Shown piece by piece: positions 5,569 through 41,651 of a DNA stretch of 64,000 nt. Location: positions 206,990-270,989 of the forward strand of contig CALXOX010000001.1 of assembly GCA_944390125.1 (NCBI GenBank), written 5' to 3'. Under the pieces are notes generated by a model. The model was given only the letters and a program-made list of their open reading frames with translations. It did no database searches and was not told the DNA's origin. The stretch's first letter is position 1; each line of letters starts with the position of its first letter. The position numbers and the translations under genes are program-made. This stretch comes from an uncultured Alphaproteobacteria bacterium. GTDB lineage: Bacteria; Pseudomonadota; Alphaproteobacteria; Rs-D84.

Positions 5569-6186
5569 TTACTCAGAATAATAGCAATTACCACCTTCTA
5601 AAATATAATCTCCTGTCACATCTTCAAAATACATTCCCCTTAAATCAGATTCTTGAATATAACAGTCTGTTATATCCGCATCTTTATTCGCATATTCGGT
5701 TAAACCGTGTGCCATACCACCTTTATCATCGTATAACCACGGGCATTCTTGACATTCATATATCATGAAGTCCGGTTCAGAGAGTCCATAATAGCCACTG
5801 CTACAAGCACCTTCGGTTTTGTTAAAAACATAGTCGCATCTGTATGTGCTAGAATTTTGCATTGTTATACTTTGTCGAGTTAATACACCGCTGCTGGTGT
5901 TTGAATAAGTCCAATCGCTTGTATAGTCATAGCATCCACAAAATTGACAAGCGGGGGCTCCTAGGTTAGTAATTGGCACCCGGTATGTTAGTGTGTCAGA
6001 AGTTTGAGACACAATGCAATATTCTGTAGTTTGATAATCACACATTGGACGTCCTATCAAGTGCGAGTATCGTAAACCCTCAGCTTTACAATTACAAACA
6101 ACATCAATGTATGCATAAGATGAGGTCGTAATTAAAGTTAAAAAAATTAGACTAATAAAACCAATAATAGTATTGAAATTTTTCAT
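5569..6186 (-). CDS. Small Cys-rich secreted protein (paralog of 29175..29786 and of the C-terminus of 891..2048)
   Basis: Track ORF of 205 aa. Signal peptide MKNFNTIIGFISLIFLTLITTSSYA. C-terminal module CSSGYY..CQECP..GLTEY..DCYIQ..DVTGDYILEGGNCYYSE is shared with 29175..29786. Preceded by structured leader copy 1. Confidence 0.75.
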   Translation of the reverse strand: MKNFNTIIGFISLIFLTLITTSSYAYIDVVCNCKAEGLRYSHLIGRPMCDYQTTEYCIVSQTSDTLTYRVPITNLGAPACQFCGCYDYTSDWTYSNTSSGVLTRQSITMQNSSTYRCDYVFNKTEGACSSGYYGLSEPDFMIYECQECPWLYDDKGGMAHGLTEYANKDADITDCYIQESDLRGMYFEDVTGDYILEGGNCYYSE

Positions 6187-6211
6187 TTATCAAACCCCTG
6201 TTTGTTTTTGT

Positions 6212-6421
6212 TAAACAAAAACCACCAAAATATGGTGGTCAGGAGGTTGATAACAATCTTACGAATTGCGTGACCTATTTTAATATTCAGCCACCCTCCT
6301 GACCCGAAAAAGCCAGGAGTGTATTTATCGTCGTAATAAAAAAAGCGCACCGCGCCCATAGGTATCTATTCCGACGCGTAAGAGAGGTTATCAAGCCCCA
6401 TCGCAGTAACCCACCGCGACA
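6212..6421 (-). promoter_or_regulatory. Structured 5' leader, candidate riboswitch/attenuator, copy 1 of 2
   Basis: Minus-strand RNA from about 6421 to the terminator ACCACCA-UAUUU-UGGUGGU-UUUU (6239-6217). Highly similar to 29808-30022, with helix-preserving differences. Mutually exclusive pairings of GUCAGGAG exist. Confidence 0.6.
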
Positions 6422-6427
6422 GTAATA

Positions 6428-6455
6428 ATTTTACGTAAACTTAAGAAAAAGTAAA
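6428..6455 (-). promoter_or_regulatory. Putative promoter of leader copy 1
   Basis: Minus strand: -35 TTTACT (6450-6455), 16-nt spacer, -10 TAAAAT (6428-6433). It lies directly after the dnaN terminator. Confidence 0.45.
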
Positions 6456-6457
6456 GA

Positions 6458-6487
6458 AATAAAAAAGCCCCTTTTCGGGGCCTTTCT
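6458..6487 (-). terminator. Intrinsic terminator of dnaN
   Basis: GGCCCC-GAAAA-GGGGCU followed by UUUUUU in minus-strand sense. Confidence 0.75.
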
Positions 6488-6492
6488 ATTTA

Positions 6493-7611
6493 TTACATTC
6501 TCATCGGCATTAAAACAAACAAAGCGTCTGTATTTTTATCTGTCGATTTTATGATTGTCGGAGACAAAGGATCCTGCATTTCCATCTGGAACTTTTCACC
6601 TTCAACCTGTCCAGCAACGTCCATTAAGAACTTTACATTAAACACAACTGTGAATGAAGTATCACCATTATATTCAATATCCAATTCCTGGGTTGCAGTC
6701 CCTGCATCCGGACTGGATGCGTTGACAACCAACTTATTCATAGAAAATGTCAGTTGAACGGACTTAGTCTTATCAACACTAGCAACAGAAACCAAGTCAA
6801 CTGCATTCAAGAATTGCTTTCTATCCAAAATAGCAATTTTATCGTTACCTTTTGGAATAACGACACGGTAATTAGGATACTGGGCATCGACTAATTTACT
6901 TGTCAATGTTGCTGTGCCAACTGTGAAACGCGCCTTAGTATCAGACAATTCAACCGTTACATCGTCAACATTGGCATCTTCCAACAATTTAGACAACTCG
7001 CCAATTACGCGACGAGGCAAAATAACCGCTGGCATTTCTGCGCTACCGACAGGAGCCGGCATAGCGCATAGCGCCATACGCTGCGCGTCTGTTGCGACAG
7101 CAGTCAGCATTTTTTCTTTTCCTTCGTCAGCAATATGGAAATAAATTCCCCCCAAGTGATAACGCACATCATCTGTTGGAATTGCAAATTTAGTCTGATT
7201 TATCAAATGCGCCAAATCACCCGTTGTCATTTGGAATTTTGTAGTTAAATTGCTACCTGCCATTGCTGGGAAATTTTCTGCTGGCAATGTAGGCAAGCGA
7301 AATACCGCACGACCACTGGATACAATCAATTGATCACCAGACTGCTTGAAAGAAATTTCTGCATCATCCGGTAACTTACGAACAATATCATACAACATCT
7401 GAACAGGAACGGTTGTCTTTCCGCCCAACGTGATATCCGCCGCCACATGTTCAACCAATTCCAAATCGACATTGGTCGCAGACAGGATTAAATCATCAGC
7501 AACCTCTATCTTTACATTTACTAATATCGGCAAGGTTGCACGCTTTTCAACGATGGACTGCATATGTCCCAGCGCACGAATTAAAACCTGACGAAATACT
7601 GAAAATTCCAT
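6493..7611 (-). CDS. dnaN: DNA polymerase III beta sliding clamp
   Basis: Track ORF of 372 aa. Three-domain clamp length, with N-terminal PILVNVKIEV and C-terminal LFVLMPMRM typical of DnaN. Confidence 0.95.
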   Translation of the reverse strand: MEFSVFRQVLIRALGHMQSIVEKRATLPILVNVKIEVADDLILSATNVDLELVEHVAADITLGGKTTVPVQMLYDIVRKLPDDAEISFKQSGDQLIVSSGRAVFRLPTLPAENFPAMAGSNLTTKFQMTTGDLAHLINQTKFAIPTDDVRYHLGGIYFHIADEGKEKMLTAVATDAQRMALCAMPAPVGSAEMPAVILPRRVIGELSKLLEDANVDDVTVELSDTKARFTVGTATLTSKLVDAQYPNYRVVIPKGNDKIAILDRKQFLNAVDLVSVASVDKTKSVQLTFSMNKLVVNASSPDAGTATQELDIEYNGDTSFTVVFNVKFLMDVAGQVEGEKFQMEMQDPLSPTIIKSTDKNTDALFVLMPMRM

Positions 7612-7790: not shown

Positions 7791-8549
7791 TCATTTATAC
7801 ATAACTTTTTCCAGCTTTGTGCGCAGCTTTTTCATATCATCATACTTAGTAAACTTGCCTTTTTCTGCGATTGATATGTCACCACTTTCTTCCGAAACAA
7901 CTAATACAACCGCACCTGATACTTCCGACAGTCCCAAAGCAGCTCTATGCCGTGTTCCATACTTCCAGTTTAAGTTATTTTTAGACAAAGGTAAAATTCC
8001 ACCAGCATACGCAATACGGTTTTTCTCTATTATTACAGCCCCATCGTGCAGTGGCGTTTTATTAAAGAAAATCGTCAGCAATAATTCACTTGAAATTTCT
8101 GCATCAATTACGACACCAGGTTTATCAATTGCACTTTCGTCCAAAGAATTAGTAAAAACAATCAACGCCCCAGTATGTTTAGCAGACATATACTCAGTTG
8201 CGGACACGATTGCATCCAGTGCCTTGGTATCACGTTTTACGTCCACCCCACTTTTAAATATACGACGCCATTCATCTACATTCCCAAGCAGCGCCATAAA
8301 CTTACGCAGTTCTGGTTGAAAAACAACGATCAAGCTGATTGACAAGAACAACGCAGTCCAATGTAAAAAACCACCCAACAAATCTAAACGCGCCCAAGTC
8401 AAAACGAAACTCAGCCCCCACAGCAAAGCCAAACCTAACAGCCCACGAACTAAACGCTCAGAAGAAGTGTTTTTTATAAAACTTCTATAAAACACCAATA
8501 TTAAAAGTATGATTACAAGAATCTGAGCCAAACCAAGCCAATTAAACAT
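7791..8549 (-). CDS. cdaA: Diadenylate cyclase CdaA (c-di-AMP synthase)
   Basis: Track ORF of 252 aa. Three N-terminal TM helices, then a DisA_N domain with the motifs LHDGAVII and GTRHRAALG. Confidence 0.88.
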   Translation of the reverse strand: MFNWLGLAQILVIILLILVFYRSFIKNTSSERLVRGLLGLALLWGLSFVLTWARLDLLGGFLHWTALFLSISLIVVFQPELRKFMALLGNVDEWRRIFKSGVDVKRDTKALDAIVSATEYMSAKHTGALIVFTNSLDESAIDKPGVVIDAEISSELLLTIFFNKTPLHDGAVIIEKNRIAYAGGILPLSKNNLNWKYGTRHRAALGLSEVSGAVVLVVSEESGDISIAEKGKFTKYDDMKKLRTKLEKVMYK

Positions 8550-29174: not shown

Positions 29175-29786
29175 TCACTCTGTCCAATAACAGCGAGCAG
29201 ACCAGCTATTTCCTTCTATAATATATTCTCCAGTTTCATCACTATACACACTATATGTTCTGTCAAAAGGTTGCAAATAACAATCCTCCAACGTCATATT
29301 CGCCATGCTTGCTGTTGTACCATATGACATTCCTTCCTCAGAATCCATACCGCATTCTACACACGGAACCCCAGGACATCTTACACAGTCTTTGGCATCA
29401 GTAGAATAATAGTAACCATACTGACAATATGCTTCAATAGAAATCACCGTCCACGTATCACACAAGCACCCACTGCCCTGTTCGGTTATTGTGGCACCAT
29501 TTTCAGTTCTTGTGCGAGTTCCACACGAAGTATAACAAAAGCCAGAGGAAGTACATTTGACACCATTACTTGAAGAACCAACCGAAACATTTGTAACGCC
29601 TTTCGTACACCCAGCATAAGTAGATTTACAATTTCCAGCTTGCGTACTGCCGCCACCAAGGCACCAAAGGCATTGATAAGATGTGCTCCTTGCGCAGTAA
29701 CCATCTATGGTATAGGACGCAGCGAAAGAATTTGTGAATACGAACATCCAAAAACAAATTACACCAACAAAAATTTTTTTCATCAT
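29175..29786 (-). CDS. Small Cys-rich secreted protein (paralog of 5569..6186)
   Basis: Track ORF 29175..29828. I prefer the ATG at 29786 or 29783 (MMKKIFVGVICFWMFVFTNSFA), which follows a CAGGAG RBS. C-terminal module CQYGYY..CVRCP..YGTT..DCYLQ..DETGEYIIEG..CYWTE. Preceded by leader copy 2. Confidence 0.75.
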   Translation of the reverse strand: MMKKIFVGVICFWMFVFTNSFAASYTIDGYCARSTSYQCLWCLGGGSTQAGNCKSTYAGCTKGVTNVSVGSSSNGVKCTSSGFCYTSCGTRTRTENGATITEQGSGCLCDTWTVISIEAYCQYGYYYSTDAKDCVRCPGVPCVECGMDSEEGMSYGTTASMANMTLEDCYLQPFDRTYSVYSDETGEYIIEGNSWSARCYWTE

Positions 29787-29807: not shown

Positions 29808-30022
29808 ACGAAAAAACCACCAAAGCATTTGGTGGTCAGGAGGTTAACGACAATTACAGGAATTGTGCTGCTTATTCAATATATTCGCAAGCCCTCCTGA
29901 CACATATCAGGAGTTTATTTTTCGTCGTAATACTAAAAACGGCGCAAAGGTCCGCGCCATAAGTACATATTCCGACGCCTGTAAAGAGGTCGTTACACCC
30001 CATCAGCAGAACACCCGCCGAC
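29808..30022 (-). promoter_or_regulatory. Structured 5' leader, candidate riboswitch/attenuator, copy 2 of 2
   Basis: Minus-strand RNA from about 30022 to the terminator ACCACCAAA-UGC-UUUGGUGGU-UUUUU (29836-29811). It shares long identical blocks with 6212-6421. Confidence 0.6.
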
Positions 30023-30028
30023 AGAGAC

Positions 30029-30057
30029 ATTATAGGTTTCCGCACGTTGCAACGCAA
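30029..30057 (-). promoter_or_regulatory. Putative promoter of leader copy 2
   Basis: Minus strand: -35 TTGCGT (30052-30057), 17-nt spacer, -10 TATAAT (30029-30034). Confidence 0.55.
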
Positions 30058-30074
30058 GCAATTTATGTTATAAT
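30047..30074 (+). promoter_or_regulatory. Putative sufC promoter (divergent, overlapping the leader promoter)
   Basis: Plus strand: -35 TTGCAA (30047-30052), 16-nt spacer, -10 TATAAT (30069-30074). AAGGTG RBS precedes the ATG at 30101. Confidence 0.5.
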
Positions 30075-30100: not shown

Positions 30101-30778
30101 ATGTTAGAAATAAAAAATTTATCTGTATCTCTTGGTGATAAAAGTTTATTGACCGACATAAACATGCATATAAAAAGGGGTGCCCGTCACTTATTGGCTG
30201 GGCATAATGGTTCTGGAAAATCTACACTTGTCGGTACAATTATTGGTAACCCAGCATATACCATAACTAGTGGTAAGATAATATTTGACGACAAAGATAT
30301 AACAAACGAAAATACCACAACACGTGCATTATTAGGGATTTTTCTTGGTGCACAAAACGTACCTGAAATACCTGGTCTTACCGTATTGAGTTTTTTAAAA
30401 CACTCTATTGCCGCACATAAACATTTTGAAACAGGAAAAGAACTATCTATGGGCGAATTTCTGTCAAACCTAGAAACAGCTCGCACTAAATTAGACATTC
30501 CAAAAGAATGGTTAAACCGCAGTATAAACGTCGGTTTTTCTGGTGGCGAACGCAAACGCCTGATGCTGCTACGTCTGATTTTAACCAATCCGAAATTCGC
30601 CATTCTTGACGAGCCTGATTCTGGTGCAGACGCAACTGTACAACAACAGATTGTTGATACCATACACGAAATGAAAGATACAACATTCCTGTTTATAAGC
30701 CACCAACAGCATTTCACAGAATTGGTAAAACCTACAGATATAACGACTTTGTCGGATGGTAAAGTTATGATAAAATAG
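30101..30778 (+). CDS. sufC: Fe-S cluster assembly ATPase SufC
   Basis: Track ORF of 225 aa. Walker A GHNGSGKST, ABC signature FSGGERKR, Walker B AILDEPDSG. Confidence 0.95.
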   Translation: MLEIKNLSVSLGDKSLLTDINMHIKRGARHLLAGHNGSGKSTLVGTIIGNPAYTITSGKIIFDDKDITNENTTTRALLGIFLGAQNVPEIPGLTVLSFLKHSIAAHKHFETGKELSMGEFLSNLETARTKLDIPKEWLNRSINVGFSGGERKRLMLLRLILTNPKFAILDEPDSGADATVQQQIVDTIHEMKDTTFLFISHQQHFTELVKPTDITTLSDGKVMIK

Positions 30779-35127: not shown

Positions 35128-35203
35128 TGGTGGCTAGAAGTGGAATCGAACCACTGACACAGGGATTTTCAGTCCCTTGCTCTACCAACTGAGCTATCTA
35201 GCC
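35128..35203 (-). tRNA. tRNA-Phe (GAA)
   Basis: Minus-strand sequence GGCUAGAUAGCUCAGUUGGUAGAGCAAGGGACUGAAAAUCCCUGUGUCAGUGGUUCGAUUCCACUUCUAGCCACCA. It folds as a cloverleaf with anticodon loop CUGAAAA, T-loop GGUUCGAUUCC and an encoded CCA. Confidence 0.9.
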
Positions 35204-41575: not shown

Positions 41576-41651
41576 GGGTGCGTAGCTCAGTTGGTAGAGC
41601 AACTGACTCTTAATCAGTGGGTCCAGGGTTCGAGTCCCTGCGCGCCCACCA
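41576..41651 (+). tRNA. tRNA-Lys (CTT)
   Basis: GGGUGCGUAGCUCAGUUGGUAGAGCAACUGACUCUUAAUCAGUGGGUCCAGGGUUCGAGUCCCUGCGCGCCCACCA. It folds as a cloverleaf with anticodon loop CUCUUAA and an encoded CCA. Confidence 0.9.

Follow-up and report, generated by a model that had tools for sequence, protein, structure and literature searches.

A new family of two-state leader RNAs, proposed to act as transcription attenuators, precedes hypervariable Cys-rich secretome genes in reduced-genome gut Alphaproteobacteria

Two leader copies in the window

The 64,000-nucleotide (nt) window analysed here, by which we mean the whole stretch taken from contig CALXOX010000001.1 of an uncultured alphaproteobacterium of the Rs-D84 lineage, carries two copies of a structured leader RNA, each lying just ahead of a gene for a cysteine-rich (Cys-rich) secreted protein. 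Sequence comparison strongly supports the view that these leaders represent a new family of two-state attenuators, an orphan switch placed before hypervariable Cys-rich secretome genes in gut Alphaproteobacteria with reduced genomes.

Copy 1 is a unit of promoter, leader and terminator situated between the dnaN terminator (6457-6491) and the open reading frame (ORF) 5569-6186. Its promoter (16-nt spacer) and its intrinsic terminator (GACCACCAUAUUUUGGUGGUU followed by a U run, 6240-6217) had both been proposed in an earlier reading of the DNA letters alone, hereafter the sequence-only reading, and both were recovered in our analysis. Transcription would begin near 6421-6423 and the RNA would end at 6217, giving a minus-strand leader (6421-6217) of about 205 nt. 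The product of the ORF that follows has 205 aa, a signal peptide and 13 Cys, and a Pfam search returned no domain for it. The parts of copy 1 are listed here in window coordinates, with the terminator and antiterminator states (T state and AT state) described below.

6428..6455, minus strand: promoter, with -35 TTTACT at 6455-6450 and -10 TAAAAT at 6433-6428
6401..6419, minus strand: P1, 5'-terminal hairpin UCGCGGU-GGGUU-ACUGCGA, with compensatory changes in 7 of 7 pairs
6387..6399, minus strand: P2 5' strand, GGGG C UUGAUAAC, covarying with its T-state partner at 6243-6254
6384-6387, minus strand: CCUC, pairing with the P2 GGGG in the local hairpin P2' (AT state)
6377..6381, minus strand: P3 5' strand UUACG, pairing with 6258-6263, with compensatory changes in 5 of 6 pairs
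6329..6376, minus strand: P4-P5 arm, CGUCGGAAUA...UAUUACGACG, enclosing the GC-rich P5 hairpin and U run 6339-6356
6312..6319, minus strand: block a, CUCCUGGC, the 5' strand of P6, which sequesters block b as the anti-antiterminator
6295..6304, minus strand: block b, GGUCAGGAGG, pairing with block a (P6) or with block c (antiterminator)
6270..6294, minus strand: P7 hairpin, loop motif GAAUAU...AAUA, present in both states, with compensatory changes in 5 of 5 pairs
6253..6269, minus strand: P8 hairpin, GCAAU ... AUUGU, whose loop is the P3 3' strand (6258-6263)
6243..6254, minus strand: P2 3' strand, GUUAUCAACCUC, supported by covariation
6237..6246, minus strand: block c, CCUCCUGACC, its 5' half pairing with the P2 GGGG (T state) or the whole block with block b (AT state)
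6217..6240, minus strand: intrinsic terminator, GACCACCA-UAUUU-UGGUGGUU plus U run, whose stem covaries in variants
6395 with 6269, minus strand: putative tertiary pair of a bulged C (after GGGG) with the G before CAAUU
5569..6216, minus strand: 30-nt spacer with the ribosome-binding site (RBS) CAGGGG, and the regulated gene (ATG at 6186)

The sequence-only reading had also pointed to a second copy. It is indeed present, with 80% identity over an aligned stretch that reaches the RBS, and has the same parts as copy 1.

29812..30023, minus strand: copy 2 of the leader, 220 bits with the family covariance model
30003-30021, minus strand: P1
29906-29913, minus strand: block a
29893-29902, minus strand: block b
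29867-29892, minus strand: P7
29850-29866, minus strand: P8
29834-29843, minus strand: block c
29812-29837, minus strand: terminator
29175..29786, minus strand: downstream gene, encoding a 203-aa signal-peptide protein with 18 Cys

A covariance-model search of the window found these two leader copies and no others, and folding compared with shuffled sequence gave z = -5.65 for copy 1 and z = -6.41 for copy 2. The terminator stems, of 8 bp (6240-6217) and 10 bp (29837-29812), are each followed by a T run, and a G+C-rich hairpin leading directly into a U run, as expected of an intrinsic terminator, is kept throughout the family. As had been claimed, the two downstream proteins are alike in their C-terminal part only, the final 123 residues being the sole region that they share (30% identity). 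Both window proteins and many proteins encoded behind other family members have in common a C-terminal Cys motif of about 60 aa, roughly C..GYYG...C..CP...G...(D/S)CY......D.TG.Y.....CYY, which matches nothing in Pfam and may serve these hypervariable secreted proteins as a common module for anchoring or folding.

The neighbours of copy 1 are housekeeping genes (dnaN, cdaA, the gene for an AsmA-family protein, ppa, efp and fba). Among them, the gene for a cdaA-type diadenylate cyclase (7791-8549, minus strand; DAC domain, E = 3.7e-39) lies 1.3 kb from copy 1; to our knowledge, signalling by cyclic diadenosine monophosphate (c-di-AMP) is uncommon in Alphaproteobacteria. Next to copy 2, a plus-strand promoter at 30047-30074 (TTGCAA, 16-nt spacer, TATAAT, with TG upstream) faces ORF 30101-30778 and points away from the leader, and the intergenic region there would therefore be divergently transcribed.

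A leader family in gut Alphaproteobacteria

Species-representative genomes, one per species, were scanned with the pattern GTCAGGAGG-N40-70-CCTCCTGACCACC, which recovered at least 118 loci. Three chance matches apart, the hosts among the matches listed are about 53 gut Alphaproteobacteria assemblies, labelled 'Ca. (Candidatus) Enterousia' or 'uncultured Rickettsiales/Alphaproteobacteria', with a few bins called Bacteroides fragilis or Muribaculaceae that appear to be mislabelled or contaminated. The assemblies under these last two names carry a typical leader and Cys-rich genes (loci L063, L065, L083, L084, L137 (CAVGNU01); L096, L111 (CAZJGX01)). A single metagenome-assembled genome may hold many copies (at least 12 in one case). 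Ca. Enterousia falls within the order Rs-D84, and its genomes are mostly smaller than 1 Mb and lack the tricarboxylic acid cycle and respiration (PMC12306168); a limited search of the literature on Enterousia and Rs-D84 found no account of such an RNA element.

A covariance model, R1, was built from 105 instances. Searching the same loci with R1 added about 22 further divergent copies, and a scan of metagenomes that used the P7 loop and the terminator 3' arm as anchors yielded more, mostly from animal guts. Covariance-model searches contributed about 47 divergent copies in all, the family recovered amounting to about 165 instances. In a scan of viral contigs with the block b/block c pattern there were 8 matches, all due to chance and none matched by nhmmer.

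The leader is consistently placed between a promoter and a gene. A -10 hexamer is found in 104 of the 105 instances, as a perfect TATAAT in 67, and it ends 5-6 nt upstream of the first helix in 93 of those 104. An ORF with a Shine-Dalgarno (SD) sequence follows the terminator in 112 of the 118 matches listed, at a distance of 20-40 nt in 102 of these. The downstream ORFs encode extremely variable proteins with a signal peptide and 8-32 Cys (median 186 aa, about 8% Cys), and nine of the Cys-rich proteins compared with Pfam gave no domain in any. Type-2 and type-3 leaders (defined below) precede signal-peptide proteins, some of them with Listeria-Bacteroides repeats (PF09479), as well as small XRE-type helix-turn-helix regulators (PF01381) and further Cys-rich proteins. 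Divergent type-2 leaders before XRE or PF09479 genes are seen at L093:1716-1896, L133:345-525, L078:2167-2315, L094:6306-6453, L156 and L144.

The terminator-state fold

The T-state structure, obtained with RNAalifold and manual completion on the 105-sequence alignment, comprises 58 pairs in nine helices. Standard pairing is kept in 95.4% of cells, with compensatory changes in 35 pairs and 720 cells changed on both sides. The observed values were reached by none of 500 shuffles, in which phylogeny was ignored, and sliding the 3' partners by 1-3 columns left only 36-52% of cells paired.

Two of the helices are long-range. The strands of P2, a helix of 12 pairs, are separated by about 150 nt in the two copies of the window, or by about 210 columns of the alignment, and column pair 36:242 illustrates their covariation (GC44/AU30/UA16/CG15); P3 is the second such helix. 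P6 is formed by blocks a and b (CUCCUG:CAGGAG), and the terminator stem varies between CCACC:GGUGG, CCGCC:GGCGG and CCAUC:GAUGG. Among unpaired stretches, the P7 loop is the best conserved across subtypes, and it is common to the small RNA (sRNA) family sRNA-Xcc1, to which we return below. The P4-P5 arm is optional, being missing from short variants. Its P5 hairpin (6343-6357 and 29939-29960, minus strand), followed by a conserved U5 run, is itself scored as an intrinsic terminator and is absent from type-2 variants; it may be a programmed pause or an early attenuation site.

A mutual-information scan revealed one further, perfectly covarying pair, between the bulge after the P2 GGGG and the first nucleotide after P7. 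This pair is U-A in 93 and C-G in 12 sequences of the first alignment (A3 columns 31 and 221), and UA in 48, CG in 10 and UG in 3 of the diverse alignment. Such a tertiary contact would pack P2 back onto the junction in the T state. A kissing interaction between the P1 and P7 loops was also considered and found no covariation among the top 60 pairs of the scan, and a kink-turn in the P2/P3 internal loop was ruled out by the lack of tandem G.A pairs.

The antiterminator-state fold

The alternative fold combines P2', P8 and the pairing of block b with block c (b:c). P2', in which GGGG pairs with the CCYN just 3' of the P2 strand, covaries (GAGG:CCUC, GGAG:CUCC, GGAA:UUCC, GGGA:UCCC), and so does P8 (ACAAU:AUUGU, CUAUU:AAUAG, CUAC:GUAG, GCAU:AUGC, ACAUU:AAUGU). 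On 72 diverse sequences, 87.6% of the cells of these three helices are paired and compensatory changes occur in 14 of 19 pairs. Shuffles, again made without regard to phylogeny, reached the observed values in 0 of 500 cases on four of five measures and in 1 of 500 on further pair types, and slid controls gave 31-56% pairing. These counts hold despite an indel that misaligns half of b:c in the type-2 rows.

In the divergent copies, blocks a, b and c vary in concert between subtypes:

Type 1: block a CUCCUGA, block b GGUCAGGAGG, block c CCUCCUGACC
Type 2: block a CUCCAACC, block b GGUUGGAGG, block c CCUCCAACC
Type 3: block a CCCCGA, block b GGUCGGGGGG, block c CCCCCCGACC

There are also single-pair compensations specific to b:c (GGAUG:CAUCC, GGAGU:ACUCC, GGAGA:UCUCC, GGGGG:CCCCC). 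The mean b:c duplex energy is -19.6 kcal/mol for cognate strands versus -14.0 kcal/mol for non-cognate ones, a value as low being given by 0 of 5000 permutations.

The two folds compete for the same strands. The b:c helix is incompatible with P6 and with the top of P2, and P3 and P8 exclude each other, as the loop of P8 consists of the P3 3' strand with a linker of only 0-1 nt. The 3' end of block c, (G)ACC, is in turn the base of the terminator 5' arm. By the covariation seen in both sets of helices, the T and AT states are shown to be a genuine pair of alternatives.

Much of this arrangement had been anticipated by the sequence-only reading. The helices that it drew as UCGC/GCGA (P1), GGCGC/GCGCU (P5) and GCAAU/AUUGU (P8) are all supported by family-wide covariation; its CUCCUG:CAGGAG hairpin is P6 and its alternative pairing GUCAGGAGG:CCUCCUGAC is the antiterminator, both likewise covariation-backed. 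The 3-nt overlap with the terminator 5' arm holds as ACC, or as GACC when a G.U pair is counted. The anti-antiterminator/antiterminator/terminator layout is borne out by compensatory changes in about 165 related sequences and by the concerted changes of the three blocks, and the positions given were exact or at most a few bases off. Helices P2 and P3, both long-range, the hairpin P7, the local hairpin P2' and the tertiary pair go beyond what had been listed.

Relationship to sRNA-Xcc1

An Rfam scan of the whole window and of 18 variant loci found no family that matches the leader at its gathering score, so the label 'unclassified' given to it previously stands; the only above-threshold matches in the window are tRNA genes at 35131-35203 (minus strand) and 41576-41648 (plus strand). 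The one notable sub-threshold match of copy 1 is to sRNA-Xcc1 (RF02221; 34.3 bits, E = 2e-4, window 6229-6304), and a type-3 variant (L122) scores 27.5 bits against the same family. Both matches span the whole 87-position model, exactly in the AT fold. The RF02221 gathering score of 53 bits is reached neither by copy 1 nor by any of the 18 variant loci; four genuine members from PLSDB, used as positive controls, score 68.8-72.6 bits with the same tool. In the opposite direction, our family covariance model did not detect genuine sRNA-Xcc1 (at most 10.6 bits).

The likeness nevertheless extends to structure and position. The RF02221 consensus consists of a G/C-rich closing helix, two hairpins, a short linker and CACC, and the AT state of the leader is built in the same way: b:c, P7 and P8, all with compensatory changes, make up the three-way junction, and CACC occurs after block c in both window copies. 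The unpaired AAUA...GAAUA motifs of genuine members are those of the leader P7. Three of the four genuine members (those with a gene annotated or an ATG readable) lie 31-46 nt upstream of an ORF, and in Aeromonas a CCACCAU...AUGGUGG hairpin, with no U run after it, overlaps block c. Genuine loci (L166:1182-1272, L169:1198-1280, L167:1185-1284) come from Nitratidesulfovibrio, Pseudomonas and Aeromonas plasmids or chromosomes, and are followed by a hypothetical protein, a BRO-family protein or an unannotated ORF. By contrast, the four genuine members start only at block b: the P1-P6 5' domain, block a and a U run after the downstream hairpin are all missing from them. The leader is not a stand-alone RNA of about 88 nt, its -10 box placing the start about 115 nt upstream of block b and its 5' domain being covarying.

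sRNA-Xcc1 has been described as an 88-nt trans-acting sRNA, detected experimentally (PMC2996969), and it precedes symE in integron cassettes of Xanthomonas (bioRxiv 10.1101/2025.06.18.660453) and, in APSE phages, an ORF6N gene (bioRxiv 10.1101/2020.03.17.996009). A scan of viral contigs with an sRNA-Xcc1 consensus pattern gave 5 matches, none of them RF02221. The antiterminator domain of the leader and sRNA-Xcc1 are probably distantly related, although the criterion of RF02221 itself places the leader outside that family. Genuine sRNA-Xcc1 RNAs may themselves be cis-regulatory rather than only trans-acting.

Energetics and proposed mechanism

For the 105 type-1 sequences, the energy advantage of the T state is 10.6 +/- 4.5 kcal/mol in the full-length RNA and 3.9 +/- 4.4 kcal/mol before the terminator 3' arm emerges, and in 74% of sequences the unconstrained minimum-free-energy fold is the T state. 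Termination would therefore be the default, and the AT state would need something that favours it.

We consider it highly probable that the leader is a cis-acting transcription attenuator, in which two mutually exclusive folds choose between termination and read-through. Each copy would have a sigma-70-type promoter of its own and would form the 5' leader in the transcript of a Cys-rich secreted-protein gene. In the T state, the 5' domain would hold both antiterminator strands, block b being paired with block a in P6, and block c, through its CCUC, with the P2 GGGG. P2 and P3 would close a junction bearing P4-P5, P6 and P7, with a tertiary pair between the bulged U of P2 and the nucleotide that opens the junction strand after P7; formation of the intrinsic terminator would follow, and an RNA of about 205 nt would be released. 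In the AT state, b:c would close a three-way junction with P7 and P8 in an sRNA-Xcc1-like fold, the bottom 3-4 nt of the terminator 5' arm would be taken, and RNA polymerase would enter the gene 30 nt downstream. The choice of fold would in this way control read-through. Control by a leader peptide was also considered; reading the sequences by eye revealed no consistent start codon or ORF after the SD-like AGGAGG of block b.

It is tempting to speculate that an effector binds and stabilises the three-way junction, with its hallmark P7 GAAUA...AAUA loop, making the leader an ON switch, since the part shared with sRNA-Xcc1 is the AT junction and the P7 loop is the most conserved unpaired sequence. 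Binding would then switch on hypervariable secreted and surface proteins together as one regulon. The effector is about as likely to be a dedicated RNA-binding protein as a small ligand. A bolder and rather doubtful extension is that the three-way junction is a new aptamer class and the leader an ON-riboswitch governing the hypervariable secretome of reduced-genome gut symbionts. The ligand in that case may be c-di-AMP, since this alphaproteobacterium unusually encodes cdaA, or a thiol- or cysteine-related compound, since the regulated proteins are 8-10% Cys.

Several points weigh against transcription attenuation by the leader, or narrow its support. The place where transcription starts, its end at 6217 and the read-through into the gene are predicted from the DNA. 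About 5 bp of the terminator stem survive in the AT state, and loss of termination would follow because a stem abutting the U run is known to be needed. The shuffle controls on both folds are blind to phylogeny, as given above, and the pattern used to collect type-1 sequences fixed blocks b and c, so that variation in b/c rests solely on the roughly 47 divergent copies. Across subtypes there is no invariant pocket of the kind typical of a metabolite aptamer, the junction strands varying because they are helix strands in the other state. Finally, orthologues of gene 5569-6186 in two related species (54% and 50% identity) have no leader; the leader is therefore not essential for this gene, and the association of leader and gene must have been gained or lost between close relatives. 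These leaderless orthologues (L007:2818-3700, L011:1286-2166) occupy the same ppa-dnaN gap and are inverted relative to the flanking genes.

Alternative explanations

The same energies bear on an alternative in which the leader is an OFF-type metabolite riboswitch, the T-state junction of P2/P3/P4/P6/P7 with its U-A tertiary pair serving as aptamer and ligand binding leading to termination. A multi-helix junction with a covarying tertiary contact is aptamer-like, the energies are nearly balanced at the decision point, and the many copies per genome before secreted or surface proteins and regulators recall the cyclic-dinucleotide riboswitches. Against this, the T state is already favoured without ligand, its junction strands are not invariant between subtypes, and the part common to the wider sRNA-Xcc1 family is the AT junction, not the T fold. 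An OFF switch of this kind thus seems unlikely to us.

The terminated RNA of about 205 nt could instead be a product in its own right, the leader being an independent trans-acting sRNA gene like sRNA-Xcc1 that works through CCUCC anti-Shine-Dalgarno-like blocks or by protein titration. It has its own promoter and a strong terminator, it exists in many near-identical copies per genome, its 3' half resembles RF02221, whose 88-nt RNA has been detected experimentally (PMC2996969), and with the T state as the predominant minimum-free-energy fold the short RNA should be abundant. Such an RNA gene would not explain why the conserved unit continues past the terminator through the RBS, nor why an ORF follows at fixed spacing in nearly all of the matches listed, leaving no room for another promoter; and the only evident effect of the covariation-supported alternative helix is to disrupt the terminator. 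We judge an exclusively trans-acting role improbable, although a dual role, as leader and as released sRNA, may exist.

Were control mainly translational, blocks a and c, whose CUCCUG resembles an anti-SD sequence, would pair with CAGGAG in the RBS downstream and so gate ribosome binding, the terminator being secondary. This would fit the type-1 RBS regions, which often read (A/U)CAGGAG and are complementary to block a. Type-specific pairing of this sort was rejected, as the RBS does not track the block change in type 2: blocks a and c become CUCCAACC there, yet the RBS remains a generic GGAG(G). The terminator stem and U run are, moreover, conserved and covarying, and translational control as the main function is very improbable. 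Least credible of all is a DNA-level repeat or recombination site of 210 bp for shuffling or converting hypervariable surface-protein genes as in antigenic-variation families. In its favour, conserved leaders stand before hypervariable proteins, units occur in tandem clusters, and related species have the orthologous gene inverted and with no leader. Against it, conservation of the DNA as such would not lead one to expect dozens of compensatory changes that keep pairing up to about 220 alignment columns apart, and the strand and the spacing to promoter, terminator and ORF are fixed.

Significance

As a cis-acting attenuator, the leader would provide a rare example of a clean two-state RNA, in which each fold is independently supported by covariation, including concerted changes in three strands, and it could serve as a model for RNA switching and co-transcriptional folding. 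It also defines a putative regulon in uncultured organisms, made up of dozens of hypervariable Cys-rich secreted proteins, surface-repeat proteins and XRE regulators. That tiny genomes spend 12 or more leaders of 200 nt on these genes suggests a central role in a symbiotic or parasitic lifestyle. The link to sRNA-Xcc1 suggests that members of that poorly understood family may be cis-regulatory domains and not only trans-acting sRNAs. Should the three-way junction prove to be a new aptamer class, the sRNA-Xcc1 family, which precedes toxin and regulator genes in integrons, plasmids and phages, would be recast as ligand-sensing cis-regulators.

Comparison with known RNA classes

The sequence-only reading had noted a faint resemblance to the c-di-AMP riboswitch (ydaO/kimA, RF00379), which did not hold up: a search of 6100-6520 at E <= 10 gave no match to that family, nor did a scan of the whole window at the gathering score. 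ydaO elements precede some secreted cell-wall enzymes, and cdaA is encoded close to the leader; the leader differs in having no pseudo-two-fold architecture, and the resemblance lay in P2/P3 strands that are freely variable in the family. The T-box leader (RF00230) was likewise set aside, there being no Rfam hit and the AT-junction strands varying freely, with no conserved UGG.

The organisation of the leader is a familiar one all the same. As in purine riboswitches, riboswitches I and II for cyclic diguanosine monophosphate (c-di-GMP), T-boxes and RAT/ANTAR systems, a 5' leader with its own promoter ends in a terminator just before the RBS and contains mutually exclusive anti-antiterminator, antiterminator and terminator helices. 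The cyclic-dinucleotide riboswitches of the GEMM-I/II classes occur in many copies per genome before secreted or surface proteins and regulators, and the leader is like the c-di-GMP riboswitches in this respect. It shares with riboswitches in general a structured domain supported by covariation and an expression platform of mutually exclusive terminator and antiterminator. What sets it apart from the known attenuator classes, none of which matches it, is that no invariant ligand pocket is evident, that its two folds are both large and both backed by covariation, and that the junction strands of either state nearly all form helices in the alternative one.

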